Shown one piece after another: positions 13,057 through 64,000 of a stretch of DNA of 64,000 bases. This stretch comes from an uncultured Eubacteriales bacterium (GTDB taxonomy: Bacteria > Bacillota_I > Bacilli_A > RF39 > UBA660). The stretch spans positions 4,627-68,626 of the forward strand of contig CAUTAF010000008.1 of the NCBI GenBank assembly GCA_963536495.1, given 5' to 3'. The position numbers and the translations under genes are program-made. The notes under the pieces were generated by a model. It worked only from the letters and a program-made list of their open reading frames with translations, had not been told where the DNA came from and ran no database searches. The first letter of the stretch is position 1, and each line of letters begins with the position of its first letter.

Positions 13057-13140
13057 CTTTTGGCAACCTAGAAATTATAGTTAATTTCCAATAGTCAAGT
13101 CATCATTTATTTTTTATTATATCATATTCAATTTTTACTT

Positions 13141-13659: not shown

Positions 13660-13684
13660 TTCCTTTTTTTAAAATTATGTTTAT

Positions 13685-13713
13685 ATTATACCATAAAAAC
13701 ATAAAAATTTAAA
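13685..13713 (-). promoter_or_regulatory. cassette promoter P4
   Basis: TTTAAA-17-TATAAT with TGG (TTATGGTATAATATAAAC). Confidence 0.55.
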
Positions 13714-13717
13714 CAAT

Positions 13718-47087: not shown

Positions 47088-47112
47088 TCTTACCCCCTTA
47101 AATAAAATGAAA

Positions 47113-47144
47113 TAGGTGTCCTACCCTTAGAGATAAAACACCTA
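47113..47144 (-). promoter_or_regulatory. intercistronic hairpin between virB10 and virD4
   Basis: TAGGTGT-N18-ACACCTA. The minus strand is followed by TTTCATTTTATTT, so it may be a partial terminator or an RNA-processing site. Confidence 0.4.
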
Positions 47145-47156
47145 CTTTTTTAAAAA

Positions 47157-49028: not shown

Positions 49029-49061
49029 CTTTTTATACCCCCTTTCACTATATTAATAAAA

Positions 49062-49907
49062 TTATTTCTTAATTCTAATTCTATTAAATCTAGCTGTTGT
49101 ATTTCCTAATTTAGTTTGTCCTTGTTCAAATATCTTATCTACTATAAAGAACTTATGTCCATCTTTTTCTTCAATTCTTTGGTTTACATTTTCAGGTTTA
49201 CCTGTTTCATCTAAAACTTCTAAGATTGGCATTTCTTGAATACCTTTTTTCATTCTAACATAAGTTTTTATTCCATCATTGTAAACTAAATCAGGACTTA
49301 TAATGTTTGTGTCTTTTATTTCATAGTTTAAATCTCTTATTTCATTAGTAGGAATATTAGCAACTTCTGACATCATCTTATCAGTTGTTATAGGCATTGT
49401 TAGTTTAGATACACTTGCCTCATTTGTATATGCTATAATTTCACTTTCTAATGGATATGTAAATTTAACCATTGGATTGAATATTGTTTTTGAAGTCTTT
49501 ACATCAAAATAATATACTCTCTTATCAGTTGTTATGATAATGTTTGTGTCTAAGTCTTCAAATAAAGGTTTTATATATACTAAACTACTTCCATCTTTTC
49601 CCCCTCTAGTTTGGTCTAGCATAAATCCCTCTGTATTCCCACCTGCTATATAAAGTACATCTTCATTAGCCTCTAATTTGATAACTGTTATGAAATCTTC
49701 TTTAACAAAAATTTGATATGAGTTATCTTCAGCATAAGGGAAAATTGCACTAATTTTTTTGATTGCCTCTTTCTTTCCACTTATATAAGTAGGGTTTGTC
49801 GAATTGTTGTAAACTACTTTCTTTGCAAGAACTTTATCATTTGCTAAAACTTCAGTTCCTATTCCACCAACTAATAATCCTAATGCTATTATCTTTGCTA
49901 TTCTCAT
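49062..49907 (-). CDS. virB9: VirB9/TrbG/CagX family T4SS protein
   Basis: Signal peptide and the C-terminal pattern LVYNDGIKTYVRMKKGIQEMPILEVLDETGKPENVNQRIEEKDGHKFFIVDKIFEQG. Confidence 0.8.
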   Translation of the reverse strand: MRIAKIIALGLLVGGIGTEVLANDKVLAKKVVYNNSTNPTYISGKKEAIKKISAIFPYAEDNSYQIFVKEDFITVIKLEANEDVLYIAGGNTEGFMLDQTRGGKDGSSLVYIKPLFEDLDTNIIITTDKRVYYFDVKTSKTIFNPMVKFTYPLESEIIAYTNEASVSKLTMPITTDKMMSEVANIPTNEIRDLNYEIKDTNIISPDLVYNDGIKTYVRMKKGIQEMPILEVLDETGKPENVNQRIEEKDGHKFFIVDKIFEQGQTKLGNTTARFNRIRIKK

Positions 49908-50018
49908 TTTCCGTTCTCCTTTACTATTTATTTATATTTTTTTAATTTACTGTTCTAAAATTTCCTACATTTTTAACATATTACTTTAATTCTTTCAATG
50001 ATTTTATTTCCTAAAATT

Positions 50019-52040
50019 CTAATTTTTGTTCTCAATTTTTTCTATTTTTTCTATTTTATCAAACATAAAATCAAAATCTTCTTTAAATTCATCTTTATAT
50101 TTCCCAAAATACTTAATTATGTTTCTTATAAACTCTTTCTCCCCATTTTCATCTAATTTAAGTATTTTTCTTAATGATTTACTATCTACATACTCTACAT
50201 TTATTACATTATTGATATAAAGTATATTGATAATCTGTAAGTAAATAAACTCAACTAATTTCGATAAGAATAAATAATCATAATTATTATTTATTATCTT
50301 TTCAACTTCTTTAAATGTCTTTGAAGTCTTCTCACTTACTCTTTTGTTTATTTCAAATTTTTCCCTTAAATTATATCTACTATAATAAAAATAATTTATA
50401 TATTTCAACATCTTCATTCTTACTGTATCAACATTTATGTCCTTTAAATTTCTTATAAATTCCTTAAAGTCATTTATACTACTTTCTTTTTCTTTAACTA
50501 ATATAAATAGACATTGCATATATATATATAAATATATTTGTAATAGATATTTCCCTAAACTACTTTCAAATTTTCCTGCAATCTCAACATTTACAGGATT
50601 AACTAAAACTGATTTTACCATATCAGTTATAAGTGTTTTATCACTTTCAAATCTTAAATTTGTTTTTTCTAATAAACCACTTTTCTTTATATTATCTATA
50701 TAAGAAGAAAATAATACAAAATATTCACTTTTATTTATTGTAAGTATTTTAAAACTTATATTTTGTTTTTGAGCCTGAAAAAATTCTAAGTTTTGTAACC
50801 TTTTTTCAACAATTCTTTTTTCACTATATTGAAATATCAATCTATCACTTCTTGAAAAAACTTTTACTACTAACTCAAGTTCCAATTTTATTTCCAAATC
50901 TATTTTAGGAAGTCTTATATAAACTATATTATTCATTCCACTTTCGTGTTTATCATCTTCTTTTGCTTTAACTCCTATAACCTTTATATTCTTTAGAATA
51001 TTTTTCTTTGAGTTATCTATCAAGTTCTTTTCTAATAGTTGACATACAATAGCATATTTAATTTTTTCAATCTCTTCTGTCTTGATATGCTTTTCAACTT
51101 CTTCTTTTATATCATCACTTATTTCAAAATTAACATTTATTATATCCATTGATTTCAATTTATCAAAATATTCAAAATTAAAATTTTGTTCTAAATTCTC
51201 AATAGGATATTCATTTGTTAAAAATCTTATTCTTTTTGTATCAATTTCTTCAATACAATCATAGAATATTTGTCTTGCTTTTTTTTCAAGTTCATCTTCT
51301 GTATCTTTAAGTACAATAATCTTGTTCTTTTCATCAAAACCTGTATACAGAATTTCATCTATACTTAATAATTGTAAATCTATAAGTAAATTATAAAACT
51401 TTAAATTCAAATCATTAAACATAAATCTTTTATATATTTCATCTTTAACAAATTTTACATTGGCTACGAAATTTCCCTCATTATATATAGGATTTTCTTT
51501 TTTTAAATCCAATATTTCTACTTCAAGCAATGATGAAAAAGTTTCATTCATTTCTTTTGATGTCATTTTCCCACTTTTTATAATGTAATAATTTATACTA
51601 AGTATTAACTTATACAATTTTTTAAATAAAAGTTCAAATTCTTCAAGTGATATAACCTTTTCTCCACTTATTAAATTAGTATTTTTTATAAATTTATACA
51701 ATTCTTCATTATCTTCTTCTTTTAAAACTTTCTTTGTGTTTTCCAAAAACTTTTTTAAATGTTCGTGGATTTTCCTTATTCTAGTTTTATAATTATTATA
51801 ATGCAAATCGCTATGTTCAACTCTATTTTCATACTCATATTTTATGTTGTATAAATTCCTATCTTCTGTTTCTATACTAGGAAATTTTGTCAACTCATTC
51901 AGTATGAAGATAGGTGTGAAAACAGTCGTATCTCTATGTATATTTTCCTTGTTATTTTTAGAAAAATATAATCTATTTTTTAAGTCAAATATAGAATTTG
52001 AAAATATTTTTGTTTCTCTAAATTTATCAACCATTTTCAC
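50019..52040 (-). CDS. large hypothetical protein inside the T4SS operon (no NTPase motifs)
   Basis: 673 aa with no signal peptide and no Walker A or B. It lies between the pilin-like genes and virB9. Confidence 0.65.
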   Translation of the reverse strand: MKMVDKFRETKIFSNSIFDLKNRLYFSKNNKENIHRDTTVFTPIFILNELTKFPSIETEDRNLYNIKYEYENRVEHSDLHYNNYKTRIRKIHEHLKKFLENTKKVLKEEDNEELYKFIKNTNLISGEKVISLEEFELLFKKLYKLILSINYYIIKSGKMTSKEMNETFSSLLEVEILDLKKENPIYNEGNFVANVKFVKDEIYKRFMFNDLNLKFYNLLIDLQLLSIDEILYTGFDEKNKIIVLKDTEDELEKKARQIFYDCIEEIDTKRIRFLTNEYPIENLEQNFNFEYFDKLKSMDIINVNFEISDDIKEEVEKHIKTEEIEKIKYAIVCQLLEKNLIDNSKKNILKNIKVIGVKAKEDDKHESGMNNIVYIRLPKIDLEIKLELELVVKVFSRSDRLIFQYSEKRIVEKRLQNLEFFQAQKQNISFKILTINKSEYFVLFSSYIDNIKKSGLLEKTNLRFESDKTLITDMVKSVLVNPVNVEIAGKFESSLGKYLLQIYLYIYMQCLFILVKEKESSINDFKEFIRNLKDINVDTVRMKMLKYINYFYYSRYNLREKFEINKRVSEKTSKTFKEVEKIINNNYDYLFLSKLVEFIYLQIINILYINNVINVEYVDSKSLRKILKLDENGEKEFIRNIIKYFGKYKDEFKEDFDFMFDKIEKIEKIENKN

Positions 52041-52097
52041 ACCTCATTTATTTTTATCCCCTTACTCCATTTAAAATGAATATATTTTTAAAAAAAC

Positions 52098-52538
52098 CTA
52101 CTCTTCTATTTCCCCTACATTTAATTCGCTTGTTACAACAGCGTTTACTGGAATTTCTGTTCCACTGATTTTATCAACAATTTTGTAAACAGCAAATGAA
52201 ATTATAATTGCTAATACGAATACAACAACATATTGAGTGATTTGTGATAATTCAGGGTTAGCAAAGAATTTGAATAGTCCAATTAAGAAATAAACTGTTC
52301 CTGCAACTGCTATTATAACTATGATAACTGTTCTGAATGTAATTAAGAAATCAATTACATCACCGAAGTCTTGAACTTGGATACCACTACCTGAACCTGA
52401 ACCTCCTCCCCCTGTTCCTATAACTGCTGAGAAACTGTTTGTACTTCTAGCGTTTTGAGCCTCTCTTGCAAAACTCACCACTGTTGTCATTAAAAACATA
52501 ACTGCCATTAACATAAAACTTTTGATTTTTTTAAACAT
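52098..52538 (-). CDS. VirB2/TrbC-like pilin (putative)
   Basis: Signal peptide (..VVSFAREAQN), a G/S-rich spacer, then two hydrophobic helices joined by FFANPELSQ. Confidence 0.45.
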   Translation of the reverse strand: MFKKIKSFMLMAVMFLMTTVVSFAREAQNARSTNSFSAVIGTGGGGSGSGSGIQVQDFGDVIDFLITFRTVIIVIIAVAGTVYFLIGLFKFFANPELSQITQYVVVFVLAIIISFAVYKIVDKISGTEIPVNAVVTSELNVGEIEE

Positions 52539-52557
52539 ACTTATCTCTTCTCCTTTT

Positions 52558-53271
52558 TTAATCTGAATATGCTTTGTTAAAATTTATATTACTAAGTTCC
52601 AATAAATTATTATCCCCTTTTTCCTTTATTGAAACTATATCCACTTCTTTTCCATCTAATGATGTTCTAGCTTTTCTTATTGAAAATCCATTAAATGCAA
52701 GTGCAACTGATACAAATAGAATTGATACTACTATATGTCTTACATAACTTGATAAATCATTATTAGCTAAGTAATTCATTGTAGAAAGTAAAAATGTTAC
52801 AGTTGCTAAAACTCCAAAAATTATTATTGTAATGATATTTATAGTCGTTATGAAATTCGATATAAATTGAAATCCACTTGTTGACATAAGTTCATTTTTA
52901 AAAGGTTCTGCACTTGTATAACCACTTCCAACAGATACTCCATTAAATGTAATTCCTTTTATAGCATTTATTACCATTCTTGGTAAATGAATTACTAATA
53001 TCATTACCATTATATGTCCTAAGAATGTTGTTACCAAATTTGTCATATCAGGATTGCTTAGCATTTCTAAAGCCTTTAGTATAATATTTATTGCTAAAGT
53101 ATATACTATAAGACATTGTAAGATTAAAATAAATCCTGCTAAATATCCATTTAATTTTCCAAAGGCTTTTAAACTTTCAAACATAAATTCACTTGCTTGA
53201 GCCTCTTTTGGTACAAATACAAAGAACATCATCAACATAATTAAAAAACTTTTCTTTTTCACTGAACTCAC
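52558..53271 (-). CDS. membrane protein with two tandem pilin-like TM-hairpin modules
   Basis: Signal peptide (..VPKEAQASE) and two copies of TM-[L..NP/ND-D/E-hs]-TM (ALEMLSNPDMTNLV.., MNYLANNDLSSYV..), like FFANPELSQ of 52098... Confidence 0.4.
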   Translation of the reverse strand: MSSVKKKSFLIMLMMFFVFVPKEAQASEFMFESLKAFGKLNGYLAGFILILQCLIVYTLAINIILKALEMLSNPDMTNLVTTFLGHIMVMILVIHLPRMVINAIKGITFNGVSVGSGYTSAEPFKNELMSTSGFQFISNFITTINIITIIIFGVLATVTFLLSTMNYLANNDLSSYVRHIVVSILFVSVALAFNGFSIRKARTSLDGKEVDIVSIKEKGDNNLLELSNINFNKAYSD

Positions 53272-53273
53272 CT

Positions 53274-53972
53274 CTATATTTCATTTCTTGAAGTTGTCAT
53301 ATCTTCGATAAAAATTCCAACAGGGTTTGTTCTTAATTCTTCTTTTGTAGTAGGTGTCTTTACAGATACACTAACAGTTGATTGGAAGAAATTTCTTTCT
53401 ATTATTGTTCCATTAGGGTCAATAGTAATCTCTTGCCATCTTACATCAAAAGCTGGTTGATTAGGTATCTTAACAATAACAATTTTATCTGTAAATCTTC
53501 TAGCACCTGTTCTTAAAAGATTTTCTCTTGCTTGTTTATCTATGTTCCATAATCTTGTTAAAACAGGTTTAGTCATAAAGTGGCTTACATCTTGTAACTG
53601 TACTTGGAATTGCTCTTCAGTAGCTGGTACTTCTCTTAAATCTCTAATAACTTTTGCTAAAAAATAAGAAATTTGTGCGTCAGTAGGTTTAATATCATTA
53701 CCATATTCTACTTCACCTAAATCAAGAACTTCTCCATTTGCTGTTACTGTAACTAAATATGGCACAAGTGGTTTTCTTTTAAAAATATAAAAGTTTATCA
53801 AGATACTTATTGCCAATATAAACAGTAACACTTTACTTACTCTTTCCCAAAACAATAAATTTTTTACTATCATAGTCATTTGATTATAAGGAGTATTTAA
53901 TTTTGAAATATCTGTATTTCTAAAATCCTTTTTAAATTCACTAGGATAGCTTTCTTGTTTCTTATCGGTCAT
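53274..53972 (-). CDS. virB8: VirB8/TrbF family T4SS protein
   Basis: Bitopic topology (TM VLLFILAISILINFYIF), size of 232 aa, and a periplasmic domain ending ..RTNPVGIFIEDM, like the NPLG motif. RBS AGGGGG. Confidence 0.7.
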   Translation of the reverse strand: MTDKKQESYPSEFKKDFRNTDISKLNTPYNQMTMIVKNLLFWERVSKVLLFILAISILINFYIFKRKPLVPYLVTVTANGEVLDLGEVEYGNDIKPTDAQISYFLAKVIRDLREVPATEEQFQVQLQDVSHFMTKPVLTRLWNIDKQARENLLRTGARRFTDKIVIVKIPNQPAFDVRWQEITIDPNGTIIERNFFQSTVSVSVKTPTTKEELRTNPVGIFIEDMTTSRNEI

Positions 53973-54430: not shown

Positions 54431-54523
54431 CTTACACTAACACCTCTCTTTACTCTATGATTTTTCTAACATATCATTCACGAAATTAATGGTTATCATT
54501 AATAATATGAATTTTACAATTTT

Positions 54524-54532
54524 ATTATATCA
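54524..54532 (-). promoter_or_regulatory. extended -10 promoter candidate for the virB8 operon
   Basis: TGATATAAT on the minus strand. The -35 is weak. Confidence 0.35.
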
Positions 54533-54561
54533 CATTTTTTAGAAAAATAAATATCTTTTTT

Positions 54562-54628
54562 TGGTATAATATACTTTTTTAAAAATATTTTTTTAATAAA
54601 AAAACAAAGTCTAAAAAAAGACTTTTTT
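54562..54628 (+). promoter_or_regulatory. inverted copy of the cassette -10 plus terminator (about 50-nt transcription unit)
   Basis: Plus strand reads TGGTATAATATAC (54562-74), then AAAGTCT-aaaaaa-AGACTTT-TTT (54606-28). There is no ORF. Confidence 0.3.
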
Positions 54629-54832
54629 CTAATTGTACTATACACCATATATTTTATTCAAATACATCTATTTTTTCTGTAAATGCTTTCTATTCTTTTC
54701 ATTAAATTAAATTAAACTTAATTTACAAAAAAGTTTTTTAATAATTGAATAAAAACATTTTATATTTTTAATAAAATTTTAAAATGATTTTAAATAAAAC
54801 TTAAAATTATATTTTTTAAAAAAATAATAAAT

Positions 54833-54862
54833 AAAAAAGCAAGGATAATCTCTTACCCTTGC
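54833..54862 (-). terminator. intrinsic terminator after 55004..55477
   Basis: GCAAGG-N12-CCTTGC. The minus strand is followed by TTTTTT. Confidence 0.5.
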
Positions 54863-55003
54863 CTTTTACCACTAATTTATTTTAACTTGTAAAAAGAGAA
54901 ACATAAAGCAAAATTTAAAATTGCTTTTTTATGAAATATGTAGACTTTAATTATTTATAACATTTTTAAAATTAAAAGTCAACAAATAATTCTTTATAAT
55001 ATT

Positions 55004-55477
55004 TTACTCTATCACAAATATTCTATGAAAATGAGGCAACTCTTGATTTAAGTGTAAAACATAATATTCAAACTTTGACTTAGGTACTGTTGCTTTCTTC
55101 TCAAGTTCCCTTATAGCGTTTTTTAAAACTTCATAACATTCCATTAAGCTATCTATATCTTTCTTTTCAGTATTGAAATAAAATAGTTGCTGTTTACATT
55201 TCTTATAATTTTCCTTTGATAACATTTCACTCAATTTCTTATGTTCAACTGTTCTTTCATCAAAACCTCTTAAAGAAATTCCGTCAAAATATAAATTGAA
55301 TTTAGTATCTTCATTAAAATATTTATCACTTGTATTGAATAAATAATTTAAACTATTCTTTATATGCTGATTGTTATTATAGTCAACTTCAAAGCTATAA
55401 AGAATTATATTTCCATTCTCATTTAATATTTTCTCAAATTCTTCTTCATCTGATGTTATCATAAAATTTTTCTTCAT
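55004..55477 (-). CDS. hypothetical protein
   Basis: 157-aa ORF. Confidence 0.6.
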   Translation of the reverse strand: MKKNFMITSDEEEFEKILNENGNIILYSFEVDYNNNQHIKNSLNYLFNTSDKYFNEDTKFNLYFDGISLRGFDERTVEHKKLSEMLSKENYKKCKQQLFYFNTEKKDIDSLMECYEVLKNAIRELEKKATVPKSKFEYYVLHLNQELPHFHRIFVIE

Positions 55478-55480
55478 ACT

Positions 55481-55741
55481 TTACCCCTTTTTATTTTTTT
55501 GTTTTACATCATTTTCATTAACATTTTCATTAACATTTTCATTAACATTCACAATAACATTAACAATATATCTTTCTTTGTCTAACATTTCAAGCAGACA
55601 ATCTTCCAAATCTGTTTCACAATTCCATCTAGGATTAGTGTTATAAATATTTCCTTGTAAATCTATAACATATCTATTATCAACATCATCTTTTAAATAG
55701 CATTGATTTTCTTTATCCCAAATGCTTATTGCTTTTATCAT
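55481..55741 (-). CDS. small hypothetical protein with (VNEN)n repeat
   Basis: 86 aa. The C-terminal VNVNENVNENVNENVNEND is encoded by a 12-nt tandem repeat. Confidence 0.55.
   Translation of the reverse strand: MIKAISIWDKENQCYLKDDVDNRYVIDLQGNIYNTNPRWNCETDLEDCLLEMLDKERYIVNVIVNVNENVNENVNENDVKQKNKKG
55511..55558. repeat. 12-nt tandem repeat, 3 exact copies plus 1 degenerate copy, in-frame
   Basis: ATTTTCATTAAC x3, then ATTCACAATAAC. Confidence 0.85.
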
Positions 55742-55772: not shown

Positions 55773-56207
55773 CTACTTTTCTAAAAATTCTTTCATCATT
55801 TTTATATTTTTTAAATTTTCTTCTTCTTTATTTAATTTTAAGAGTTTACTCTTTTCATCTTTTTTTATTTTTTCTATTTTTTTTAAAACTTTTTTTGCTA
55901 GTCTAAATTTTTCATTTTTCTTTTCAAATCTTAATTCACAAAAATAAATAACTATATTTATAATGAAAAAACCTGAAATAGTTAATATAAAAATTTCACT
56001 TATTGTTTTGAAATTTAATTCAGTATATCCTTTTACATTTACATATATCAAACCTGTTATAAGTATTATTAATAATCCAGCATAAACAATTTTATCAGAG
56101 ATTTCTTCAGAAAATTCTCCCACAATTTTTTCAGCTATTTCTTTTACTTTAATCATTTCTCTGATTTCTTTCATTTCACTTTTTATTTCTTCATCAGTGT
56201 ATTCCAT
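55773..56207 (-). CDS. small 2-TM protein, family F
   Basis: 2 TM helices, KFRLAKKVLKKI, and the C-terminal tail NLKNIKMMKEFLEK. Confidence 0.7.
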   Translation of the reverse strand: MEYTDEEIKSEMKEIREMIKVKEIAEKIVGEFSEEISDKIVYAGLLIILITGLIYVNVKGYTELNFKTISEIFILTISGFFIINIVIYFCELRFEKKNEKFRLAKKVLKKIEKIKKDEKSKLLKLNKEEENLKNIKMMKEFLEK

Positions 56208-56245
56208 TTCTCTACCTCAATTCAACTTGACTTTTTTATTTCTAT

Positions 56246-56827
56246 TCATTTTTTTAAATATTCTTTCATCATCTTTACTTCTTGTGATTTTTCCTTATTT
56301 TCTTCTAATGTTTTTTTTATTTTTTCTTTATTTTTTTCTTCCATTTCTTTTGTTTTGATTTTTTCTTCTTTTTCTTTTTTGAAATTTTTATATTTTTCTA
56401 TTACTTCCTTAGCAAGTTTCATTCTTTCTCTTTCAGGAGAAAAATCTTTATTAAATTTCATATAATAAAAATTTGCGACAAAAAATATTCCAGTGGCTAC
56501 AAGTGTAAGTATTGACATTGTTTTTCCATCAAATTTTATATCTTTTTTAAAAAATGCAAGTAAAACAATTAAAATTATTATTGAAATAAATGTAATTATT
56601 GAAGTTTTAACCATAACTTTTTCATTATATTCCGAAATAATTTTTCTTGCTTTTTTAATTAAAAGTTTATCGTTATATTCTTCATATTCCGAAATAATTT
56701 TTCTTGTTCTTTTAATTAAAAGTTCATCATCATATTCTTCTTTATTGTCATTCTCTTCAAAATAGATTGTTATTTTAGTTTCTTTAGTTTCTTCCAAATT
56801 GAACACCCCATTTTTTTTATTACTCAA
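56246..56827 (-). CDS. small 2-TM protein, family F
   Basis: 2 TM helices, RMKLAKEVIEKYKNF, and the tail KEKSQEVKMMKEYLKK. It contains an internal 19-aa duplication. Confidence 0.7.
   Translation of the reverse strand: MSNKKNGVFNLEETKETKITIYFEENDNKEEYDDELLIKRTRKIISEYEEYNDKLLIKKARKIISEYNEKVMVKTSIITFISIIILIVLLAFFKKDIKFDGKTMSILTLVATGIFFVANFYYMKFNKDFSPERERMKLAKEVIEKYKNFKKEKEEKIKTKEMEEKNKEKIKKTLEENKEKSQEVKMMKEYLKK
56627..56740. repeat. 2 x 57-nt tandem duplication, in-frame
   Basis: Encodes LLIKRTRKIISEYEEYNDK / LLIKKARKIISEYNEKVMV. Confidence 0.8.
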
Positions 56828-57328
56828 TCATTTATTTAAAAATTCTTTCATCAACTTTATTTCTTGTGATTTTTCTTTGTTTTTTTTTAATGTTTCTTCT
56901 ATTTTTTCTTTATTTTTTTCTAGTTTTTCTTTCAATTCAGCTTTTATTTTTCTTCTTTTTTCTAAGTCTTTATATTTCTTTTCTATTTCTTTTGCAAGTT
57001 TTAAATCTTCATTTTCATTAATAAGTTTTTTTTCATATAGTATGTAAAATATAATTGATGTAAAAAATACCATAGCTATTAAGAATACAGCTAAGAGTAA
57101 TATTTTATATACTATTCCAATAACAAGTTTTTCTTCAAAAATAACAATCATAGTTACTGTTGATATAAAACTTAAACAAACAACAGATAGAATTTTCTCA
57201 AAAATTCTTTCATCATATTCATCTATAATTTTTTCAGAAACTTTTCTTAATTTTTCTTCTTCACTTTTTTCGTTCTCTTCAAAATAGATTGTCATTTTAG
57301 TTTCTTTAGTTTCTTCCATACCAAACAC
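56828..57328 (-). CDS. small 2-TM protein, family F
   Basis: NEDLKLAKEIEKKYKDLE and the tail KEKSQEIKLMKEFLNK. Its stop abuts the start of 56246..56827. Confidence 0.7.
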   Translation of the reverse strand: MFGMEETKETKMTIYFEENEKSEEEKLRKVSEKIIDEYDERIFEKILSVVCLSFISTVTMIVIFEEKLVIGIVYKILLLAVFLIAMVFFTSIIFYILYEKKLINENEDLKLAKEIEKKYKDLEKRRKIKAELKEKLEKNKEKIEETLKKNKEKSQEIKLMKEFLNK

Positions 57329-57351
57329 CTCATTTTTTTATCTCTTAATTA

Positions 57352-58284
57352 TTATTTATTCAAAAATTCTTTCATCATCTTTATATTTTTTGAATTTTCT
57401 TTATTTTTTTCTAATGTTTCTTTTATTTTTTCTTTATTTTTTTCTTCTTTTTCTAAATCTGTATATCTTTTTATTATTTCTCTAGCAAGTTTAAAATCTT
57501 CATTTTCTTTAACAAGTTTTTTTTCATATAATATATAAAATATAGCTGGTACAAAAATCATTATAATTATTAGAACTACAATTATCGACAATATGTTAGA
57601 TATTATTCCAATAAGAAATTTATTTTTTGAAATAAAAATTATAGATATTACTGTTATATAGATTAAAAAAGCTAAAACAACAGCAAAAAAACATTTTACA
57701 GAAATCTCTTTATCATATTCATATATAATTTCTTCAGAAACTTCTCTTAATTTTTCTTCTTCCATTTCTTCTACGCTTTCTTTATCATCTTCATCTTCAT
57801 TGTATTCAGAAATTAATTCTTCTTTTTCTTTTTCTAAATTCTCTATTTGCTCTTTCAAATTCTTTTTATTTTCTTCAGCATTTTCTTCAATATTTTCTTC
57901 AATATTTTCTGTATCTTTATTTTCTTCAATTTTTTCGATTTCATCTTCTAATTTTTTTATTGTTTTATCTAATTCATTTAATCTTTTAGCTTTTTCTAAT
58001 TCTTGTTCCTTTTCTTTTATTTCTCTTAACTTGTCGATTTCATCTTCTAAAATATCAACTTCATCTTCTAATTCTTCAATTTTATTTTCTAATTTTTCAA
58101 CTTTTCTTTCTAATCTTCTTTCTTTCCTTTCTTCATCAAAATCTAATTCAGAAATTTCTTCTTCTAGTTCTTCAACTTTTTCTTCTAAATTTGCTATTTC
58201 TTCTTCTAGTTCTTCAATTCTTTTTTCTTTTTCTTCTATCTTTTCATTTATTTTTTCCAATTCCATATTCATATCCATATTCAT
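57352..58284 (-). CDS. family F 2-TM protein with long acidic coiled-coil N-terminal extension
   Basis: About 180 aa of E/K heptad-like repeats (EELEEEIANLEEKVEELEEEISEL..), then the family F core with NEDFKLAREIIKRYTDLE and the tail KENSKNIKMMKEFLNK. Confidence 0.7.
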   Translation of the reverse strand: MNMDMNMELEKINEKIEEKEKRIEELEEEIANLEEKVEELEEEISELDFDEERKERRLERKVEKLENKIEELEDEVDILEDEIDKLREIKEKEQELEKAKRLNELDKTIKKLEDEIEKIEENKDTENIEENIEENAEENKKNLKEQIENLEKEKEELISEYNEDEDDKESVEEMEEEKLREVSEEIIYEYDKEISVKCFFAVVLAFLIYITVISIIFISKNKFLIGIISNILSIIVVLIIIMIFVPAIFYILYEKKLVKENEDFKLAREIIKRYTDLEKEEKNKEKIKETLEKNKENSKNIKMMKEFLNK

Positions 58285-58304
58285 ACCTCAATTCATTCAT
58301 TCAT

Positions 58305-58802
58305 TTATTTTTTTTCTAAATATTCATTTCTTTCTAAATATTCTTTCATAACTTTAACTTGTTGTGATTTTTCTTTACTTTCTTCTAATGTATTACTTAT
58401 TGAAATTCTTTTTTTTAAGTCTTTACTTCTTTCTTTAATTGTTTTTGAAAGAATTTTAAAAGTTTTCTTAGCAATTTTTAAATCTTCGTTTTTAAAATTA
58501 CAATAAAAACCATAAATTAAACCGAATAAGCAATAACTTAAAACAAATGCAATCCACCCTGTAATTATAGGAATAAAAACTTCGTTCATTATAATGGCTG
58601 TTGTTACTGCTGAAATAAGCATTATAAAAATCCCAAAACAAAAACTTTTAATTGTACTATCATTTAAGTTTTCATTTAAAACTTGAAAAACTACTTCTAA
58701 TGTTTTTCTTTCTTCATTTGTCCATAATTCATTCTCATAATCTGTAAAGCTGTTCCAATCATAAAACTTTATATCTATTAATTTTTCTTCATTTTTTTCC
58801 AT
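58305..58802 (-). CDS. small 2-TM protein, family F
   Basis: NEDLKIAKKTFKIL and the tail KEKSQQVKVMKEYLERNEYLEKK. Confidence 0.7.
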   Translation of the reverse strand: MEKNEEKLIDIKFYDWNSFTDYENELWTNEERKTLEVVFQVLNENLNDSTIKSFCFGIFIMLISAVTTAIIMNEVFIPIITGWIAFVLSYCLFGLIYGFYCNFKNEDLKIAKKTFKILSKTIKERSKDLKKRISISNTLEESKEKSQQVKVMKEYLERNEYLEKK

Positions 58803-58833
58803 ATTTTTCTCCTAATAACTAAAGTAATTTTTT

Positions 58834-59364
58834 TTATATTTTTTGAATAAAATATCTTATATCTTTATTTATACAAAACATTTTCTTAATAAAACTTTTG
58901 TACATAAATTCCTTTTCTATTACTTTATAGCCTTTTTCTTTGAAATATTTGAAGATTTCAACTTCTTCTTTTTTGTTAAAAATTAAAGCTACTGTATCAG
59001 GCTTATTTTTTGGAAATACTTTAAATCTTTCTATATCATCAGGATTAAATTTTTCTATAACTAATATCTTCCCATTTTTATATTCTTCATCTAAGGTATT
59101 ATCACTAATTTTCCTTATTTGATAGTCTATTTTATATAGTTCTTTATATTTTTTATATCTTAGTTTATATATTAAGAAATATATACCTAAATATAGAAAT
59201 GCTACAATAGGATATAATAAAATTGCTCCTATCCAAGACATACTTCCCATATAGTCATTCATCTTAAATATATATATAAGACAAGTATAAAATGATAACC
59301 TTGAGATTAAATCAAAGTGTTGCTTTGTTTTAAATTTAAAAATTTCTCTTTCTAAAAGTTCCAT
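58834..59364 (-). CDS. membrane protein (2 TM plus C-terminal soluble domain)
   Basis: 176 aa. It is not family F, since it has no LAKE motif or tail motif. Confidence 0.6.
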   Translation of the reverse strand: MELLEREIFKFKTKQHFDLISRLSFYTCLIYIFKMNDYMGSMSWIGAILLYPIVAFLYLGIYFLIYKLRYKKYKELYKIDYQIRKISDNTLDEEYKNGKILVIEKFNPDDIERFKVFPKNKPDTVALIFNKKEEVEIFKYFKEKGYKVIEKEFMYKSFIKKMFCINKDIRYFIQKI

Positions 59365-59416
59365 ATTTTTTTCTCCTCAATTCCCTTTTTTGTTATAAGT
59401 AAAATAATGTAAATAA

Positions 59417-59863
59417 TTAATGCAAATAATTTTCAAAATCTTTTATATTATTAGATTTTTCTTGTTCCTCTTCAAAAATCTCTTTTAATTTTCTTTCTTT
59501 TTCTTTTAGTTTTTTCTTTTCTTCATATTTTTTTATTATTTCTTTAGCTAAAATATATTCTTTGTCTTTTCTATATTTTAATAAATATATTATTTCACTA
59601 GCTATTTTTTTAGAAAATTTAACCCAGTAATAACCACAAATAAGAAATAAAGGTATTAATATAAATTGAATTATATAAGGGTTGACTATGTTTGCTAAAA
59701 TATAAGCAAACATAGATATATATAGAAAAAGTATTATCACCTGTATAAAATCATATAAAATTCCTTTTTCCTTTTCGTATACAACATTTTTTGCTCTTCT
59801 TTCTACACCATTCATATCCATTGACATTTTATCACTCCAATCTTTATATTTTTTCAAAAACAT
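59417..59863 (-). CDS. small 2-TM protein, family F
   Basis: DKEYILAKEIIKKYEEKK and the tail QEKSNNIKDFENYLH. Confidence 0.7.
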   Translation of the reverse strand: MFLKKYKDWSDKMSMDMNGVERRAKNVVYEKEKGILYDFIQVIILFLYISMFAYILANIVNPYIIQFILIPLFLICGYYWVKFSKKIASEIIYLLKYRKDKEYILAKEIIKKYEEKKKLKEKERKLKEIFEEEQEKSNNIKDFENYLH

Positions 59864-59920
59864 TCAACCAAATCCTATCTTATTCTAACTTTCTAACACT
59901 GTTAGAAAATGTTAAAACTT

Positions 59921-60109
59921 TTATATAGATTTTTTATCTAACATAAGATATTCAATTACAGTCAAATCTTTTTTTAATATCTTGCAAGTTCTTCCATAAT
60001 CATAACAACCTACAATTAGACAAACTATAACTGTTACAAAAAATATTTTATATTGATTTTTAACGAAAAAATCATATAAATCTTCTTCATCATTTCTCTT
60101 TTTTGACAT
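59921..60109 (-). CDS. 62-aa single-TM protein
   Basis: KIFFVTVIVCLIVGCYDY. RBS GTGAGGG. It is preceded by its own promoter and a leader hairpin. Confidence 0.5.
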   Translation of the reverse strand: MSKKRNDEEDLYDFFVKNQYKIFFVTVIVCLIVGCYDYGRTCKILKKDLTVIEYLMLDKKSI

Positions 60110-60139
60110 TTAACTACCCTCACTTCTAAATAAAATTCA

Positions 60140-60205
60140 ATAAAAACAGCACTATCCTGTTCCACTGTTGAATTTTTTCAACTCGTGAGATAGTGCCTTT
60201 ATTAC
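60140..60205 (-). ncRNA. candidate attenuator leader or about 65-nt sRNA
   Basis: Downstream of the promoter at 60212..60240. GCACTATC (60149-56) pairs with GATAGTGC (60189-96), enclosing GTTGAA-tttt-TTCAAC (60167-82). The minus strand is followed by UGUUUUUAUU. Confidence 0.35.
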
Positions 60206-60211
60206 ACTATC

Positions 60212-60240
60212 ATTATATCAAATTTTATATAAAATGTAAA
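60212..60240 (-). promoter_or_regulatory. sigma70 promoter with extended -10
   Basis: TTTACA-17-TATAAT with TGA (TTTACATTTTATATAAAATTTGATATAAT). Confidence 0.55.
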
Positions 60241-60261
60241 GGTTTTCTATGTAAAGGTTTT
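60234..60261. repeat. 2 x 13-nt direct repeat overlapping the -35
   Basis: ATGTAAAGGTTTT-ct-ATGTAAAGGTTTT. Confidence 0.8.
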
Positions 60262-60274
60262 GCAAGTTTCCCTT

Positions 60275-60730
60275 TTATTTTTCAATCATTCCAAAATATT
60301 CTCTTGTTTCTTTAATATGTTGTGAATGTTCAATCATTTCTTTTAAAAAAATTTTTCTTTCCATTTTTTCTGTTAAAAATTTTTCTCTATTTTTATATAT
60401 ATTAACCATTTTTTTTGCAAATTTATATTCTTCATCTGCTAATTCTAAACAAATATCTGAAACAATGGTACTTAAAATTAAAAATATAAATGGAACAATG
60501 CAATTAATAGAAATTATTGTGAATAGTATTTCTGAAGTGAAATAATTGCTTTTTTCACCATAATAAACAATACTTGAAATTATAGATAAAAACCATAAAC
60601 ACATAGAGATATATAAAGATAACTCCCCTTTCTTTTTATCTATTATTTTTAAAAATTTTTCCTTACCTAATTTACTTTGTTTTAGTAAAAGTTCTTCTTT
60701 TTCTATTTCTAAATCATCAATACTTTCCAT
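60275..60730 (-). CDS. small 2-TM protein, family F (divergent)
   Basis: DEEYKFAKKMVNIYKNRE and the tail IEHSQHIKETREYFGMIEK. Confidence 0.65.
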   Translation of the reverse strand: MESIDDLEIEKEELLLKQSKLGKEKFLKIIDKKKGELSLYISMCLWFLSIISSIVYYGEKSNYFTSEILFTIISINCIVPFIFLILSTIVSDICLELADEEYKFAKKMVNIYKNREKFLTEKMERKIFLKEMIEHSQHIKETREYFGMIEK

Positions 60731-60781
60731 TTTTAATTCAACTCCAATTTAATTTTCCAATTTAATTTTCCAATTTAGTTT

Positions 60782-61435
60782 TTATATTATTCTTCCAAAT
60801 CCAGCAAAAGTCTTTTTATAAAAACCTTTTAATTTTGTTATCACAACTTTTCCATATCCACTTGAGGCGTGTATAAATAAATTATCTCCTAAATATATCC
60901 CAATATGAGTTATTTCATCTACATCTGTTGTTTTAAAGAAAATTAAATCTCCTATCATAGCCTCATTATTTCTGATAAATTTACTATCTTTAGCCTGTAA
61001 TCTTGACACTCTTCTAGTATTTATATTACATTTAGATAAAGAATTATGTACAAGTCCACTACAATCTACACCTTGTCTTTTAGTATTTCCACCCCAAGTA
61101 TATTTCACTCCTAAATAACCATAAGCCTCTCTAACAGTCTTTAGAATTTTTTCTCTTCTAGTTTTGTCAAGTATAGTAGTGTTTATTTTCTTTTCTAAAT
61201 CTTCTAACTTTAAACTTACATTATATTCATTTAAAATCTTACCAGCTAATTTATATCTAACATTAGGAACTTCAGCAACCTTTACTTTACCCTGTTCGTC
61301 TATTTCTAAATCTAAATCTCCTACCTCATAATTTCCTAAAAAATTAATATTAGACTTTCTATCAAGTGCATTTAAACCACTTCCTAAAGATAGACTACTT
61401 ATTATCACTAACATCAATATTATTATTCTTTTCAT
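60782..61435 (-). CDS. NlpC/P60 family cell-wall hydrolase (secreted)
   Basis: Signal peptide, YLGVKYTWGGNTKRQGVDCSGLVHNSL (catalytic Cys) and GDLIFFKT...ITHIGIYLGDNLFIHAS (His). Confidence 0.85.
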   Translation of the reverse strand: MKRIIILMLVIISSLSLGSGLNALDRKSNINFLGNYEVGDLDLEIDEQGKVKVAEVPNVRYKLAGKILNEYNVSLKLEDLEKKINTTILDKTRREKILKTVREAYGYLGVKYTWGGNTKRQGVDCSGLVHNSLSKCNINTRRVSRLQAKDSKFIRNNEAMIGDLIFFKTTDVDEITHIGIYLGDNLFIHASSGYGKVVITKLKGFYKKTFAGFGRII

Positions 61436-61476
61436 CAGTAAAATCCTTTCTTTTTTTCATTTCTAAAGTTATTATT

Positions 61477-61995
61477 TTATATCTTTTCTAAAATTTTATT
61501 TTGTATATTTTCATCTTCAATTATTTTATAATATATATCTTCTAATCCAAGACTTTTATCTTCTAAATATGTCTTTAACTTTTCTTTTGAAAACTCATTT
61601 TCTATAACTTCTTTAAAAACTTTCTTATATTTCTTAGGATAAAAAAACAATTCAAGACTTGAAAGTAAATCTTCAACAGTAACTTCATTTTCTTTTTTGT
61701 AAAAATTGACAAGCAATCTTCTTTTGCTATAAAAGTAAAAATTATAAAAAATTATAAAACTTATTCCTAACAATGCTATCCAATTTAATTTTAAAAATTT
61801 TATTTTTTCTGATATAGTTGCACTTGAAAATAAATTCATAAGATTAATAACGATAGTAAAACCTATAACTGTTTTCATTTCAGTCAATATTTGATAGACA
61901 TTTCCATATATTTTATAAACTCTGTTTCCAAAAATCTTATCCCATATAGTTAATTTGTTGAAAATCTTATTTTTATTTATTTCTTTCCCTTTCAT
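61477..61995 (-). CDS. membrane protein, family E (divergent)
   Basis: 2 TM helices, then FFYPKKYKKVFKEVIENEFSKEKLKTYLEDKSLGLEDIYYKIIEDENIQNKILEKI. Confidence 0.6.
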   Translation of the reverse strand: MKGKEINKNKIFNKLTIWDKIFGNRVYKIYGNVYQILTEMKTVIGFTIVINLMNLFSSATISEKIKFLKLNWIALLGISFIIFYNFYFYSKRRLLVNFYKKENEVTVEDLLSSLELFFYPKKYKKVFKEVIENEFSKEKLKTYLEDKSLGLEDIYYKIIEDENIQNKILEKI

Positions 61996-62456
61996 TAGTT
62001 CCCCTTTTTTTCATTTTTTAAATATCTTTCTAGTTCACATATTCGTTCTTGTTTTTCTTTTTCTTTATAAATAATATTTAAACATTTGTTTCGTTTCATT
62101 TCTTCATCTTTTTTCTTTTCATAATTCAACATAACTTCTTTCGCTAATTGGTATTCTCTATCTTTAAATAAAATAAAAAAATTCAATATTTTTAGAAAAA
62201 CGAAAACTATAAAACAAGAAACAAATCCTAAAAGTATAGAAATCATCATTCCTAAAAGTATTGCTGGAAAAACAAATTCTAATTCAATATTTCTTAAAAA
62301 CATTCCAAAAATTATACTCAAAATCATAAAAAAACCAAAACTAATAATGTATGTTATTTCAAAATCTAATTTAACTTTCTTTTTCTCTTCTACAAGTTCA
62401 TAAGACATTTTCTCATATTTATTCATTTCTAGTTCTTTTTCATTATCTACTCTCAT
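61995..62456 (-). CDS. small 2-TM protein, family F
   Basis: DREYQLAKEVMLNYEKKK and the tail KEKQERICELERYLKNEKKGN. The N-terminus (MNKYEKMSYELVEEKKKVKLDF) is shared with 62508... Confidence 0.7.
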   Translation of the reverse strand: MRVDNEKELEMNKYEKMSYELVEEKKKVKLDFEITYIISFGFFMILSIIFGMFLRNIELEFVFPAILLGMMISILLGFVSCFIVFVFLKILNFFILFKDREYQLAKEVMLNYEKKKDEEMKRNKCLNIIYKEKEKQERICELERYLKNEKKGN

Positions 62457-62507
62457 AATTATTTCCTTTTTTAATTATCTTCTTTTAAATATTTTTCCTT
62501 TTATTCT

Positions 62508-62993
62508 TCATTTTTTTCTTACATTTCTTAAATAATTCTCTAATTTAAATATTCTTTTTGATTTCTCAACTTCTTTATCTAGGACTTCTTTACAATTCTT
62601 TCTTTTGTTTTCAAAAAATTTCTTTTTATTAAATTCAAAAACCTTTTTTTCGTAATTTCTTACAACTTCTTTTGCTAAATGATATTCTCTATCATTTTTT
62701 AAATTGATTTTTCTCTTTAATTTAAGTAAAAATTCAACAACAAAAGCGAATATCAAAGCTAAGGACAAAGAAAGGAAAACCCCAAAAATTGCAAATGCTA
62801 ATAAATGTTCAACCAATATTTTTTTAGCAATAAAAATAAAAATTATTAACCCAGTAAATAAAATTGTTATAACAAGAAAACTACTGAAAACCCAATTATC
62901 AAAATCAAATTTTACTTTCTCTTTTTCCTCTATAAGTTCATAAGACATTTTCTCATATTCATTCATTTCTAAACTTTCTTCCATAATTACCAC
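62508..62993 (-). CDS. small 2-TM protein, family F
   Basis: DREYHLAKEVVRNYEKKV and the tail VEKSKRIFKLENYLRNVRKK. Confidence 0.7.
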   Translation of the reverse strand: MVIMEESLEMNEYEKMSYELIEEKEKVKFDFDNWVFSSFLVITILFTGLIIFIFIAKKILVEHLLAFAIFGVFLSLSLALIFAFVVEFLLKLKRKINLKNDREYHLAKEVVRNYEKKVFEFNKKKFFENKRKNCKEVLDKEVEKSKRIFKLENYLRNVRKK

Positions 62994-63033
62994 CTTTTCT
63001 ATTTTCTTTTTCCTTAATATTTTTATTATTTAA

Positions 63034-63411
63034 TTAATTTTCTTTTTTACATTCTCTCCTGCTCTCCTGATAGATAATATCTATTAATTTTTTCTTCATA
63101 TAATATTTTTTTATAATTTTTTTAGCCAAACGATATTCTTTATTAAAATTCAATTTTATTTTTTTAAAAATTTTAGGAATATATGGTAAAATTATTGCTA
63201 AAATAATAACACATATAATTATGAAAAGTATATTTTTCTTAAAAAATGAAATAGATATTATAAAAATAAAAATCAATGATATTATTGATAATAGGCAATA
63301 AATTAAATATCTACCTAATTCTGTATCTAAATTGTTAAGAGTTTCTTTTTCCTCAATTAACTTAACAGCTTGTCTTTCTGTTTCATTCATTTTAAATTCA
63401 TTTCTTTCCAT
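63034..63411 (-). CDS. small 2-TM protein, family F (short tail)
   Basis: NKEYRLAKKIIKKYYMKKK. The C-terminal tail motif is truncated. Confidence 0.65.
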   Translation of the reverse strand: MERNEFKMNETERQAVKLIEEKETLNNLDTELGRYLIYCLLSIISLIFIFIISISFFKKNILFIIICVIILAIILPYIPKIFKKIKLNFNKEYRLAKKIIKKYYMKKKLIDIIYQESRRECKKEN

Positions 63412-63433
63412 TTTCTTTATCCTTTTTATATTT

Positions 63434-63784
63434 TTATATAATTGTTTTCATCAAAAACCATATAAAACAAATAACTCCATAAATACTTAGTCCAAACAAT
63501 ATAATTATGAAAAACATTAAGATTTTGACAAGTATATTCATAACCTTATTATTCGATAGTATTCTATAAATCTCTATAAAAATATTATAATCAGAATTTT
63601 CATAATCAACCGATATATTATTATAGTCATTATTTACAGTTTTCTTTAAGGCTTGTTCTAAGAATAAATTATTCCCATTTTCTATATTTTCACTTTCTTT
63701 AAATAAATTCAATTTTTGAAATTCTATATATAAAAGATTTCTCATTCTATTGCCCTTATTTATCCTTTTTTTTAATTTCTTCAA
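63434..63784 (-). CDS. C-terminally anchored hypothetical protein
   Basis: 116 aa with a C-terminal TM (LVKILMFFIIILFGLSIYGVICFIWFLM). Confidence 0.55.
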   Translation of the reverse strand: MKKLKKRINKGNRMRNLLYIEFQKLNLFKESENIENGNNLFLEQALKKTVNNDYNNISVDYENSDYNIFIEIYRILSNNKVMNILVKILMFFIIILFGLSIYGVICFIWFLMKTII

Positions 63785-63914
63785 CTAACCAATCTAAAAT
63801 TTCTATTTGACTTTTTTTCTTATTTAAGTCTTCTTTATCTGTAAAACTTGAACTATATTCTAATTCTACTTGTTTATTTTCTATCATCAATAATAATTCT
63901 TCAATATCTATCAT
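63756..63914 (-). CDS. 52-aa ORF
   Basis: MIDIEELLLMIENKQVELEYSSSFTDKEDLNKKKSQIEILDWLVEEIKKKDK. It overlaps the next start by 29 nt and is below the track cut-off. Confidence 0.3.
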   Translation of the reverse strand: MIDIEELLLMIENKQVELEYSSSFTDKEDLNKKKSQIEILDWLVEEIKKKDK

Positions 63915-63943
63915 ATTTATTCACCTTATTTATTAATTTTTTA

Positions 63944-64000
63944 TTATTTTTCATTATCTTCATTCAAAAATTTTTTAAATTCCTTGATTTTATCAGATTT
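63944..64000 (-). CDS. 3' end of a further family F-like gene (N-terminus beyond window)
   Basis: The open frame ends ..KSDKIKEFKKFLNEDNEK*, which resembles the family F tail IKMMKEFLNK. Confidence 0.35.
   Translation of the reverse strand, partial: KSDKIKEFKKFLNEDNEK

Follow-up and report, generated by a model that had tools for sequence, protein, structure and literature searches.

According to one published account (PMC11493245), most known exclusion factors are small proteins of the cytoplasmic membrane whose genes lie in the transfer region, and TraS/Eex and the donor TraG interact through cytoplasmic regions. In the 64-kb stretch of contig CAUTAF010000008.1 analysed here (called the window, meaning the whole stretch at its full length), ten complete genes and the end of an eleventh form an array upstream of the genes of a type IV secretion system (T4SS) and encode small proteins with two transmembrane (TM) helices, and an undescribed T4SS-linked family is supported. 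The nearest functional analogues of this family may be the inner-membrane entry-exclusion proteins, with tandem immunity arrays also close. TraS of IncF, Eex of SXT/R391 and ExcA of IncI are inner-membrane proteins of about 140-170 amino acids (aa) from the transfer region, and the family is like them in architecture and position. They are also poorly conserved between systems, accessory and specificity-defining, which may be likened to the situation of the family, whereas here 9-14 deeply diverged paralogues with additional dispersed copies were found, and there is no sequence similarity.

Tandem immunity arrays stand beside secretion toxins, such as the EsaG/TsaI repeats of the type VII secretion system (T7SS) and the orphan CdiI/Rhs arrays. 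Strain-variable copy number, recombining paralogues and an evolution relaxed or diversifying in comparison with the machinery are common to these arrays and to the family. In contrast, no toxin gene was identified here, the system is a T4SS instead of a type VI secretion system (T6SS) or T7SS, conservation lies in the cytoplasmic helices, and the paralogues are far more diverged (20-50% identity).

Three further groups could be compared with the family. SLATT/DUF4231 proteins share with it two TM helices, charged helical flanks and a similar size, but the family gave no matching Pfam or PADLOC profile and was not accompanied by sensor or nucleotide-signalling genes, and we know of no SLATT genes in ten-copy arrays. 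Arrays of VirB2 and VirB6 paralogues occur in the T4SS of Rickettsiales, which are likewise tandem, diverged, small membrane-protein paralogues in a T4SS locus, while the family has no VirB2/VirB3 homology and no signal peptide and is not a duplicated core part. The Bdr proteins of Borrelia are plasmid-encoded paralogues on low-GC replicons, K/E-rich coiled-coil proteins anchored in the inner membrane and carrying conserved motifs, and the family resembles them in these respects. Bdr proteins, however, are anchored once, at the C-terminus, and contain internal peptide repeats, and their genes are scattered over plasmids, whereas the family is a two-TM hairpin in one tandem array; homology with Bdr is not expected.

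Members of the array and their layout

Ten open reading frames (ORFs) of one architecture had been proposed in the original prediction, and all ten were found on the minus strand between 55773 and 63411, forming a single family by alignment. They were numbered F1 to F10 from the lowest coordinate upwards; E values are those of the family hidden Markov model (HMM).

55773..56207, minus strand: F1, 144 aa, with N-terminal helix, two TM helices, the motif EKFRLAKK and the tail EENLKNIKMMKEFLEK (E = 1.6e-24)
56246..56827, minus strand: F2, 186-193 aa, start uncertain (TTG at 56827 or GTG at 56806; E = 1.7e-27)
56627..56740, minus strand: tandem duplication within F2, 57 nt x 2.0, in frame, 91% identical, which duplicates LLIK[RK][TA]RKIISEY
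56828..57328, minus strand: F3, 166 aa, query of the AlphaFold2 model (E = 3e-33)
57352..58284, minus strand: F4, 310 aa, with an acidic coiled-coil N-extension of 191 aa (E = 1.1e-24)
58305..58802, minus strand: F5, 165 aa, with a 90% identical orthologue in the divergent locus L013 (E = 7.7e-29)
59417..59863, minus strand: F6, 148 aa (E = 1.9e-36)
60275..60730, minus strand: F7, 151 aa (E = 2.2e-25)
61995..62456, minus strand: F8, 153 aa, listed as P0001, with the motif DREYQLAKEV and the tail KEKEKQERICELERYL (E = 9.6e-49)
62508..62993, minus strand: F9, 161 aa, parent type of natural F9/F8 chimeras (E = 1.6e-53)
63034..63411, minus strand: F10, 125 aa, without the C-terminal tail motif (E = 4.2e-16)
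63944..64000, minus strand: 3' end of F11, truncated by the window edge, translation ending in KSDKIKEFKKFLNEDNEK*

The HMM (alignment A3) was seeded with eight window members and fourteen metagenome relatives, F4 and F10 lying outside the seed, and it matched 10/10 ORFs at E = 4e-16 to 2e-53 (1e-24 for F4 and 4e-16 for F10). No further match at E <= 1e-3 was obtained among the ORFs of at least 40 aa in the 64-kb window. The fragment at the window edge, suspected from the outset to be an eleventh member, is a real one, because a complete gene of 141-147 aa occupies the same position in related contigs (L004 and others). The gaps within the run from F5 to F1 are about 0-40 bp, and several members are preceded by Shine-Dalgarno-like sequences.

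All members contain a pair of strongly hydrophobic segments, separated by a short loop wherever the TM scan resolved it (the scan is crude, and fused the two segments in F10). They are preceded by a hydrophilic, mostly net acidic N-tail of 29-68 aa (191 aa in F4) and followed by a net basic C-tail of 51-72 aa. The AlphaFold2 model of F3, built on a 22-sequence alignment, reached a predicted local distance difference test (pLDDT) score of 80.5 and consisted of three long helices (residues 8-67, 71-105 and 107-165). The members are resident inner-membrane hairpin proteins, in which an N-terminal helix runs into TM1, then a short loop and TM2 follow, and a basic amphipathic helix of about 60 residues makes up the C-terminus. 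Natural fusions of two complete units were present at 12759-13754 of the related locus L017 and in P0142 (331 aa), and such fusions require that both termini lie on one side of the membrane. According to the positive-inside rule, this side would be the cytoplasm for the N- and the C-terminus alike, with which the fusions are consistent. The AlphaFold2 model of P0142, made with no alignment, was uninformative (pLDDT 52.7).

The N-terminus had been regarded as variable, which was right in part. A conserved motif of its own, L-E-M-N-E-x-E-K-x-x-x-E-L-I-E-E-K, was identified in F8, F9 and most relatives, while F1-F5 carry the variant E-K-L-R-K-V-S-E-K-I-I-D-E-Y; the fit is loose in F6 and F10, and loose or diverging in F7. 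The juxtamembrane motif could be written as K-[DN]-x-E-Y-x-L-A-K-E, with an invariant A and an almost invariant K, and E-K-x-x-x-I-x-x-[LM]-x-x-Y-L stands at the extreme C-terminus of most members. The K-E-K-S-Q tail proposed for the whole array held in its strict form for F2, F3 and F5 and nearly so for F1 and F4, but F6-F9 follow only the looser pattern and F10 has no tail at all. This 125-aa tail-less form of F10 recurs in L008 and as P0148.

The predicted acidic coiled-coil extension is indeed present in F4, with 82 D/E vs 34 K/R in its 191 aa. The 57-nt duplication of F2, once taken for a fresh one, is real and not pristine, because 91% identity means about 5 differences between the copies; as F2 alleles in L003 and L004 are shorter (about 170 codons), the duplication is probably polymorphic among strains, judged from gene lengths.

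The motif at the extreme C-terminus of most members, together with the large extra domains of the 1508-aa coupling protein VirD4, would suit the idea that the family consists of T4SS substrates or membrane adaptors which VirD4 recognises through the K/E-rich C-tail. This is very improbable, and secretion of the proteins was disfavoured by their hydrophobicity, the 19-residue Kyte-Doolittle means being mostly 2.0-3.3, as in resident inner-membrane proteins. Segments that hydrophobic are inserted co-translationally and not secreted, as is known from transmembrane-domain effectors. In addition, the tail-less F10 persists in several samples, and L018-type relatives have no members despite a comparable giant VirD4.

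The absence of any known T4SS component with this signature, stated in the original prediction, was borne out, with no significant match in the profile libraries, structures or folds searched. Scans of 10-22 members against Pfam, NCBIfam, PHROGs and PADLOC gave only inconsistent sub-threshold matches (Pfam was scanned with 10 members at E up to 1 and with 22 members at E up to 0.05, and the 25 families matched by most members were listed). The HMM found no match below E = 0.004 among the sequences of the Protein Data Bank (PDB), and Foldseek with the pLDDT-80 model found nothing below E = 3. The NCBIfam profile NF041560 'T6SS_Burk_ExIF', a putative T6SS effector, was matched by 7/10 members (best E 0.004); these matches scored only some 12-17 bits where the cut-off is 90 bits, and were treated as compositional or architectural.

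Diversified paralogues of the pilin (VirB2) or of VirB3, as in the duplicated T4SS of Rickettsiales, would also be small, have two hydrophobic helices and stand in tandem in a T4SS region. This explanation is largely refuted and deserves next to no credence, for a hydrophilic N-tail and a basic C-tail were found in place of a signal peptide, and neither VirB2 nor a VirB3 of the PF05101 type was among the Pfam families listed. The probability given by hhalign was 0.7% against TrbC/VirB2 and 0.05% against TrbD/VirB3, both from an E. coli plasmid, the latter comparison having limited sensitivity because it used a single sequence. A better pilin candidate is p146 (52098-52538) in the core operon, which has a signal peptide and two TM helices. 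As no VirB4 was recognised among the window ORFs scanned, neither adjacency nor fusion of the family to VirB4 was seen.

Two TM helices and a charged C-terminal helix in about 150 aa would fit membrane-permeabilising pore formers, SLATT-like or holin-like, serving abortive infection, lysis or addiction, in which the conserved cytoplasmic helices would gate oligomerisation. A cell-wall hydrolase of the NlpC/P60 type inside the array and the weak, sub-cut-off NF041560 matches are in line with such a function, which is nevertheless decidedly unlikely. No consistent or threshold-passing match was given by Pfam or PADLOC; none of the Pfam families listed is SLATT or DUF4231, single weak matches in Pfam being possible. 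Sensor or signalling partner genes of the SMODS, TIR or RT type were absent among the neighbours scanned, which are family members, NlpC/P60 and small proteins without a family match where scanned. The earlier suggestion of SLATT/DUF4231 thus found neither sequence support nor a nearby partner gene. Ten pore formers co-expressed without antidote genes in the closely packed F5-F1 run would be implausible, and NlpC/P60 needs no holin because it has a signal-like N-terminus of its own. A class II holin was considered separately, whose two-TM layout is compatible, and was rejected with the same signal in view and with no holin match in PHROGs. On the criteria tested, the family is not SLATT/DUF4231, VirB2 or VirB3, nor a recognised holin, defence or exclusion family.

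Distribution, synteny and turnover

Among 5.8 billion proteins, word-indexed searching retrieved 122 matches, all unnamed and without Pfam domains, and exhaustive searching of 1.84 billion cluster representatives with HMMER yielded no more than 73 clusters (50% identity), all of which have the family architecture or are fragments thereof. The sources looked up for ten clusters were ENA, Logan and JGI only, with none in NCBI or UniRef. Motif-seeded scanning, done twice over 185,579 GTDB species genomes and once over IMG/VR, confirmed no member, and the Fusobacteriales assignment implied in the original prediction found no support here. The PLSDB plasmids had no megablast match to the region, and for VirD4, TnpB and TelA only distant plasmid matches were obtained by tblastn (30%, 58% and 32% identity, respectively). 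A metagenome scan revealed 25 loci, whose contigs reach 325 kb and have 20-24% GC, and the naming style of samples and contigs suggests that they came from human cohorts. Every member found sits on the same syntenic T4SS-bearing element, in agreement with the predicted linkage. The orphan family is restricted to a single clade of giant plasmid-like elements of about 22% GC which bear this T4SS.

In L034 (BNJT01000799.1, 324,824 bp) and L035 (BNJS01000699.1), the family appeared as short fragmentary matches only, most likely due to frameshift errors. The size of these contigs suggests that the element has at least 300 kb.

Giant oral elements called Inocles were found only in human metagenomes, with no isolate genomes, and have a strong GC skew and VirD4; the Inocle-delta group has 24% GC, an average of 245 kb and an unknown host (PMC12340149). 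The host element of the family resembles Inocle-delta by GC content, size, habitat and VirD4 only. Inocles carry sortase and LPXTG genes and were linked to Streptococcus (PMC12340149), whereas the element described here has VirB9 and VirB10, which would point to an outer-membrane host. In the literature on a Fusobacterium megaplasmid or T4SS of this type, only a different, IncP-like integrative and conjugative element was found.

The synteny of the main array is constant. Genes for Cas8-like, Cas7 and Cas5 proteins come first, then a 237-aa protein, F11, p52 and p104, followed by members, NlpC/P60, more members, p86/p157/p136, and VirB8 through VirD4. Not all of p86, p157 and p136 are present in every lineage, and a 190-aa protein stands beside the 237-aa protein only in the lineage of the window. 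In the three family-bearing lineages the array surrounds NlpC/P60 upstream of VirB8 at the same position, with 9-14 HMM hits in complete arrays (some of the high counts include frameshift-split ORFs).

Membership changed more readily than position. Between the window and L015-L017 the core proteins are 63-86% identical, while matches of family members reach 55% at best and are mostly 30-39%, so that the family has no one-to-one orthologues. L013 retains F5 (90%) and F4 (74%) with the other members replaced, and F7 is swapped for a 38%-identical paralogue in some strains. The sister locus L018 has a VirB8 of 53% identity and the same synteny, including the giant VirD4, with no detectable member of the family. 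Two small TM proteins at the equivalent position of L018 were considered as divergent members and rejected, since hhalign showed no relation.

Solitary copies also occur. On the same contigs they lie 28-30 kb upstream, beside Pnkp-like RNA-repair and TnpB genes; elsewhere they lie next to a DNA methylase, some 10 kb beyond VirD4 on its downstream side; and in the related element L011, a member directly follows a flotillin gene. The family is therefore accessory and not a core part of the T4SS, as shown by the sister T4SS without it, the solitary copies and the lack of one-to-one orthologues. It is a family of the element whose copies cluster at the T4SS without being exclusive to the T4SS operon. 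The picture of an array wrapped around the T4SS is right about the linkage on one element, but the solitary copies 10-30 kb away and the sister T4SS show it to be overstated.

Most orthologue pairs of the family between strains had a ratio of nonsynonymous to synonymous substitution rates (dN/dS) of 0.3-0.6, compared with 0.07-0.13 for NlpC/P60, VirB8, p237 and p157; orthologues of F1, which are 83-97% identical, gave 0.14-0.44. The members are real genes under purifying but relaxed selection, because these values are mostly below 1, and the few comparisons reaching 1 or above came from near-identical or mismatched (paralogous) pairs. Pooled by region, dN/dS was highest in the TM hairpin (0.57) and lower in the N-tail (0.35) and C-tail (0.27); hairpin values near or above 1 in F2, F7 and F9 rest on small, non-independent counts.

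Chimeras were found in nature. P0015 and P0017 have the N-tail and TM region of F9 joined to a C-tail of the F8 type, with the breakpoint inside DREYxLAKEV..NYEKK, and the breakpoint of P0047 lies within the N motif, while P0117 and P0089 are neighbouring non-family genes fused to C- or N-parts of the family. As breakpoints fall in conserved motifs, unequal crossing-over probably alters the copy number and shuffles modules, and the family turns over quickly.

Neighbouring genes and the secretion core

The window has about 22% GC and a strong negative GC skew, with almost all genes on the minus strand. Six ORFs in and near the array are not of the family, comprising those of 62, 172 and 176 aa inside it, those of 116 and 52 aa at its upstream end, and one of about 190 aa just upstream in related loci. 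Three of the six, namely p172, p176 and the upstream 190-aa protein, were compared with the family by hhalign, and no profile similarity was revealed.

42561-53972, minus strand: T4SS core, VirB8 then p237, p146, a 673-aa protein, VirB9/CagX, VirB10/TrbI and VirD4
54431-55003: AT-rich spacer of 570 bp between p157 and p136
54834..54867, minus strand: intrinsic-terminator-like hairpin with T-run, within the p157-p136 spacer
55004-55477, minus strand: p157, conserved soluble protein, which with p86 closes the transcription unit of the array
55481-55741, minus strand: p86, conserved soluble protein downstream of F1
58834..59364, minus strand: p176, non-family, one TM helix and a soluble C-domain, strongly conserved (dN/dS 0.07-0.14)
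59921..60109, minus strand: p62, small TM protein without a family HMM match, conserved across related loci
60782..61435, minus strand: NlpC/P60 peptidoglycan hydrolase (PF00877, E = 2.4e-23), enclosed by the array
61477..61995, minus strand: p172, non-family two-TM protein, whose start overlaps the F8 stop by one base
63434-63784, minus strand: p116, tail-anchored, conserved, non-family, between F10 and F11
63756-63914, minus strand: p52, soluble, conserved, non-family, between F10 and F11

The array encloses NlpC/P60 and is co-directional with the downstream VirB8, VirB9, VirB10 and VirD4, just as predicted. It lies upstream of the T4SS genes, though not immediately, for two genes, the hairpin and the 570-bp spacer intervene. 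One such hairpin was found in 11 kb where 0.4 were expected. Downstream of it in the spacer, about 95 nt before p136, stands an extended -10-like box, TGATATAAT, and together they suggest that the operon from VirB8 to VirD4 may have its own promoter. The array is probably a transcription unit separate from the T4SS core, though co-directional with it. A general promoter scan was uninformative in such AT-rich DNA (85 found vs 87.5 expected).

NlpC/P60 carries a signal-like TM segment at residues 1-24 and has a dN/dS of about 0.1, as expected for a VirB1-like hydrolase of the machinery. Its gap to F7 is filled by three direct copies of the 13-nt GGAAAATTAAATT (60743-60782, coding strand, 96% match), directly upstream of the F7 start codon, which may be regulatory or a slippage product. 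A 12-nt tandem repeat in p86 (55510-55568, about 4.9 copies) encodes (VNEN)n near the C-terminus, and p86 has 82-86 aa among strains. The p172 gene is strain-variable, with no full-length match in L001, L003 and L004.

In the core, p237 has 4-5 TM helices and no Pfam match and is a candidate VirB6-like protein. No Pfam or NCBIfam match was obtained for the 673-aa protein, and no Walker A motif is visible in its translation. VirB3, VirB4, VirB5 and VirB11 were not recognisable among the window ORFs scanned, so unusual components might be expected, and the family could then supply accessory inner-membrane subunits or adaptors of the T4SS or of the NlpC/P60 hydrolase. Such proteins would form hetero-oligomeric stalks through their cytoplasmic N- and C-helices, tethering or regulating the giant VirD4 or other cytoplasmic parts. 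The conserved cytoplasmic helices with mostly acidic N-tails and basic C-tails favour this, as do the one-base overlap of F8 and p172 and the overlap of F8-type genes with the NlpC/P60 gene in related loci, and by the Rosetta-stone argument the two-unit fusions hint that units touch each other. The adaptor explanation is unlikely all the same, with copy number and membership differing between near-identical strains, a sister T4SS doing without the family, and hhalign null against TrbD/VirB3 and TrbC/VirB2. Essential structural parts are normally strongly constrained and one-to-one, and the family is neither.

Further genes of the element were recorded. Three ORFs (5087-5815, 13718-15115 and 16162-16947) match parts of the T4SS-DNA_transf (VirD4/TraG) profile, one of them (465 aa) being fused to an N-terminal HTH_3 domain, and could be coupling-protein paralogues or fragments. 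TnpB (39812-41090, minus strand, 386 aa) has OrfB_IS605 and a Cas12f1-like TNB domain, and directly 3' of it lies a RAGATH-18 RNA (63 bits vs a gathering score of 44.9 bits), presumably the guide (omega) RNA of TnpB. IS607-type resolvase and TnpB insertions were seen at other sites of the same region in related loci. A cluster of TelA, TerD-domain and YceG-like genes is located at 8420-12064, and a flotillin (Band_7 and Flot) at 35923-37404. The protein p138 (35398-35814), which follows the flotillin gene, has a tail-like KEKETRRLEEYL and was rejected as a family remnant; BLAST showed no relation, and K/E-rich strings therefore arise by chance here.

In every lineage (L001-L007, L015, L017 and L018, for example 259-5752 of L004), the array is preceded, at a distance of 4-10 kb upstream, by a set of Cas6-like (251 aa), Cas8-like (606 aa), Cas7 (PF05107) and Cas5-like genes (Cas5 is a weak PF09704 match in L015-L017). 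No Cas3, Cas1 or Cas2 was found within the 10 kb examined, and the set may represent a Cascade without its nuclease, borne by a giant conjugative element.

Possible roles and meaning

The preferred explanation, though of low confidence, is that the array may be a diversified inner-membrane repertoire for exclusion or an immunity-like function. Of the three functional ideas in the original prediction this would be the most compatible one, as it fits the accessory status, fast turnover and recombination. The conserved cytoplasmic helices would dock a common partner or each other, and the fast-diverging TM hairpin with its loop would give specificity, so that variant relatives attempting transfer or attack would be warded off at the inner membrane of the element-bearing cell. 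New variants and changes of copy number would come from unequal crossing-over within the conserved motifs. It is rather doubtful that the array works as a recombination-shuffled library of gatekeepers, each paralogue blocking the T4SS of a different element variant from the cytoplasmic face. One would give similarly little weight to the idea that in such a library the conserved motifs double as crossover sites which mix TM-hairpin and tail modules. To our knowledge, a combinatorial exclusion repertoire has not been described in any conjugative system.

Several observations weigh against an exclusion or immunity-like role. The profile scans revealed no exclusion or immunity family homologous to the array proteins, and no cognate toxin was identified, with no toxin domain recognised near the array. 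Known exclusion systems consist of one or two genes, not ten, and their genes usually abut a VirB6 homologue; here p237 lies about 2.5 kb downstream, with p86, p157, the terminator-like site, p136 and VirB8 in between. Between closely related strains, p237, VirB8 and p136 remain 97-100% identical although the family turns over, and its diversification thus shows no visible coupling to a target in the T4SS. Conserved cytoplasmic parts with a variable hairpin are also expected of a simple anchor under relaxed selection, and solitary copies occur beside RNA-repair, methylase or flotillin genes.

As an alternative, the array may be a lineage-specific multigene family of the giant element without a direct role in type IV secretion, a membrane-anchored coiled-coil protein loosely like Bdr of Borrelia, in which tandem duplication and unequal crossing-over would produce largely neutral variation in copy number and sequence. 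The solitary copies 10-30 kb from the array beside unrelated genes, the terminator-like site and long spacer before the VirB8 operon, a dN/dS that is relaxed but below 1, and the sister T4SS without the family all favour it, and about 95% of Inocle genes are without known function (PMC12340149). There is still a low probability for this explanation, as the paralogues of the window are deeply diverged (20-50% identity) and each is kept across strains, the three cytoplasmic motifs are held invariant, and the main array keeps its position in the three family-bearing lineages. The retained diverged paralogues and invariant motifs argue for a specific, non-redundant function.

The importance of the family is limited by its narrow distribution, with 73 clusters at 50% identity on one element type. 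Within that range, it is a sequence-defined marker for one clade of giant uncultured T4SS elements which are missing from isolate genomes, and it flags an atypical T4SS with a giant VirD4, an NlpC/P60 hydrolase and VirB3, VirB4, VirB5 and VirB11 unrecognised among the window ORFs scanned. Should the array indeed serve exclusion or immunity, co-circulating variants of the giant oral element would compete intensely enough to sustain about ten specificities, and the family would offer a new modular model for the evolution of exclusion specificity.

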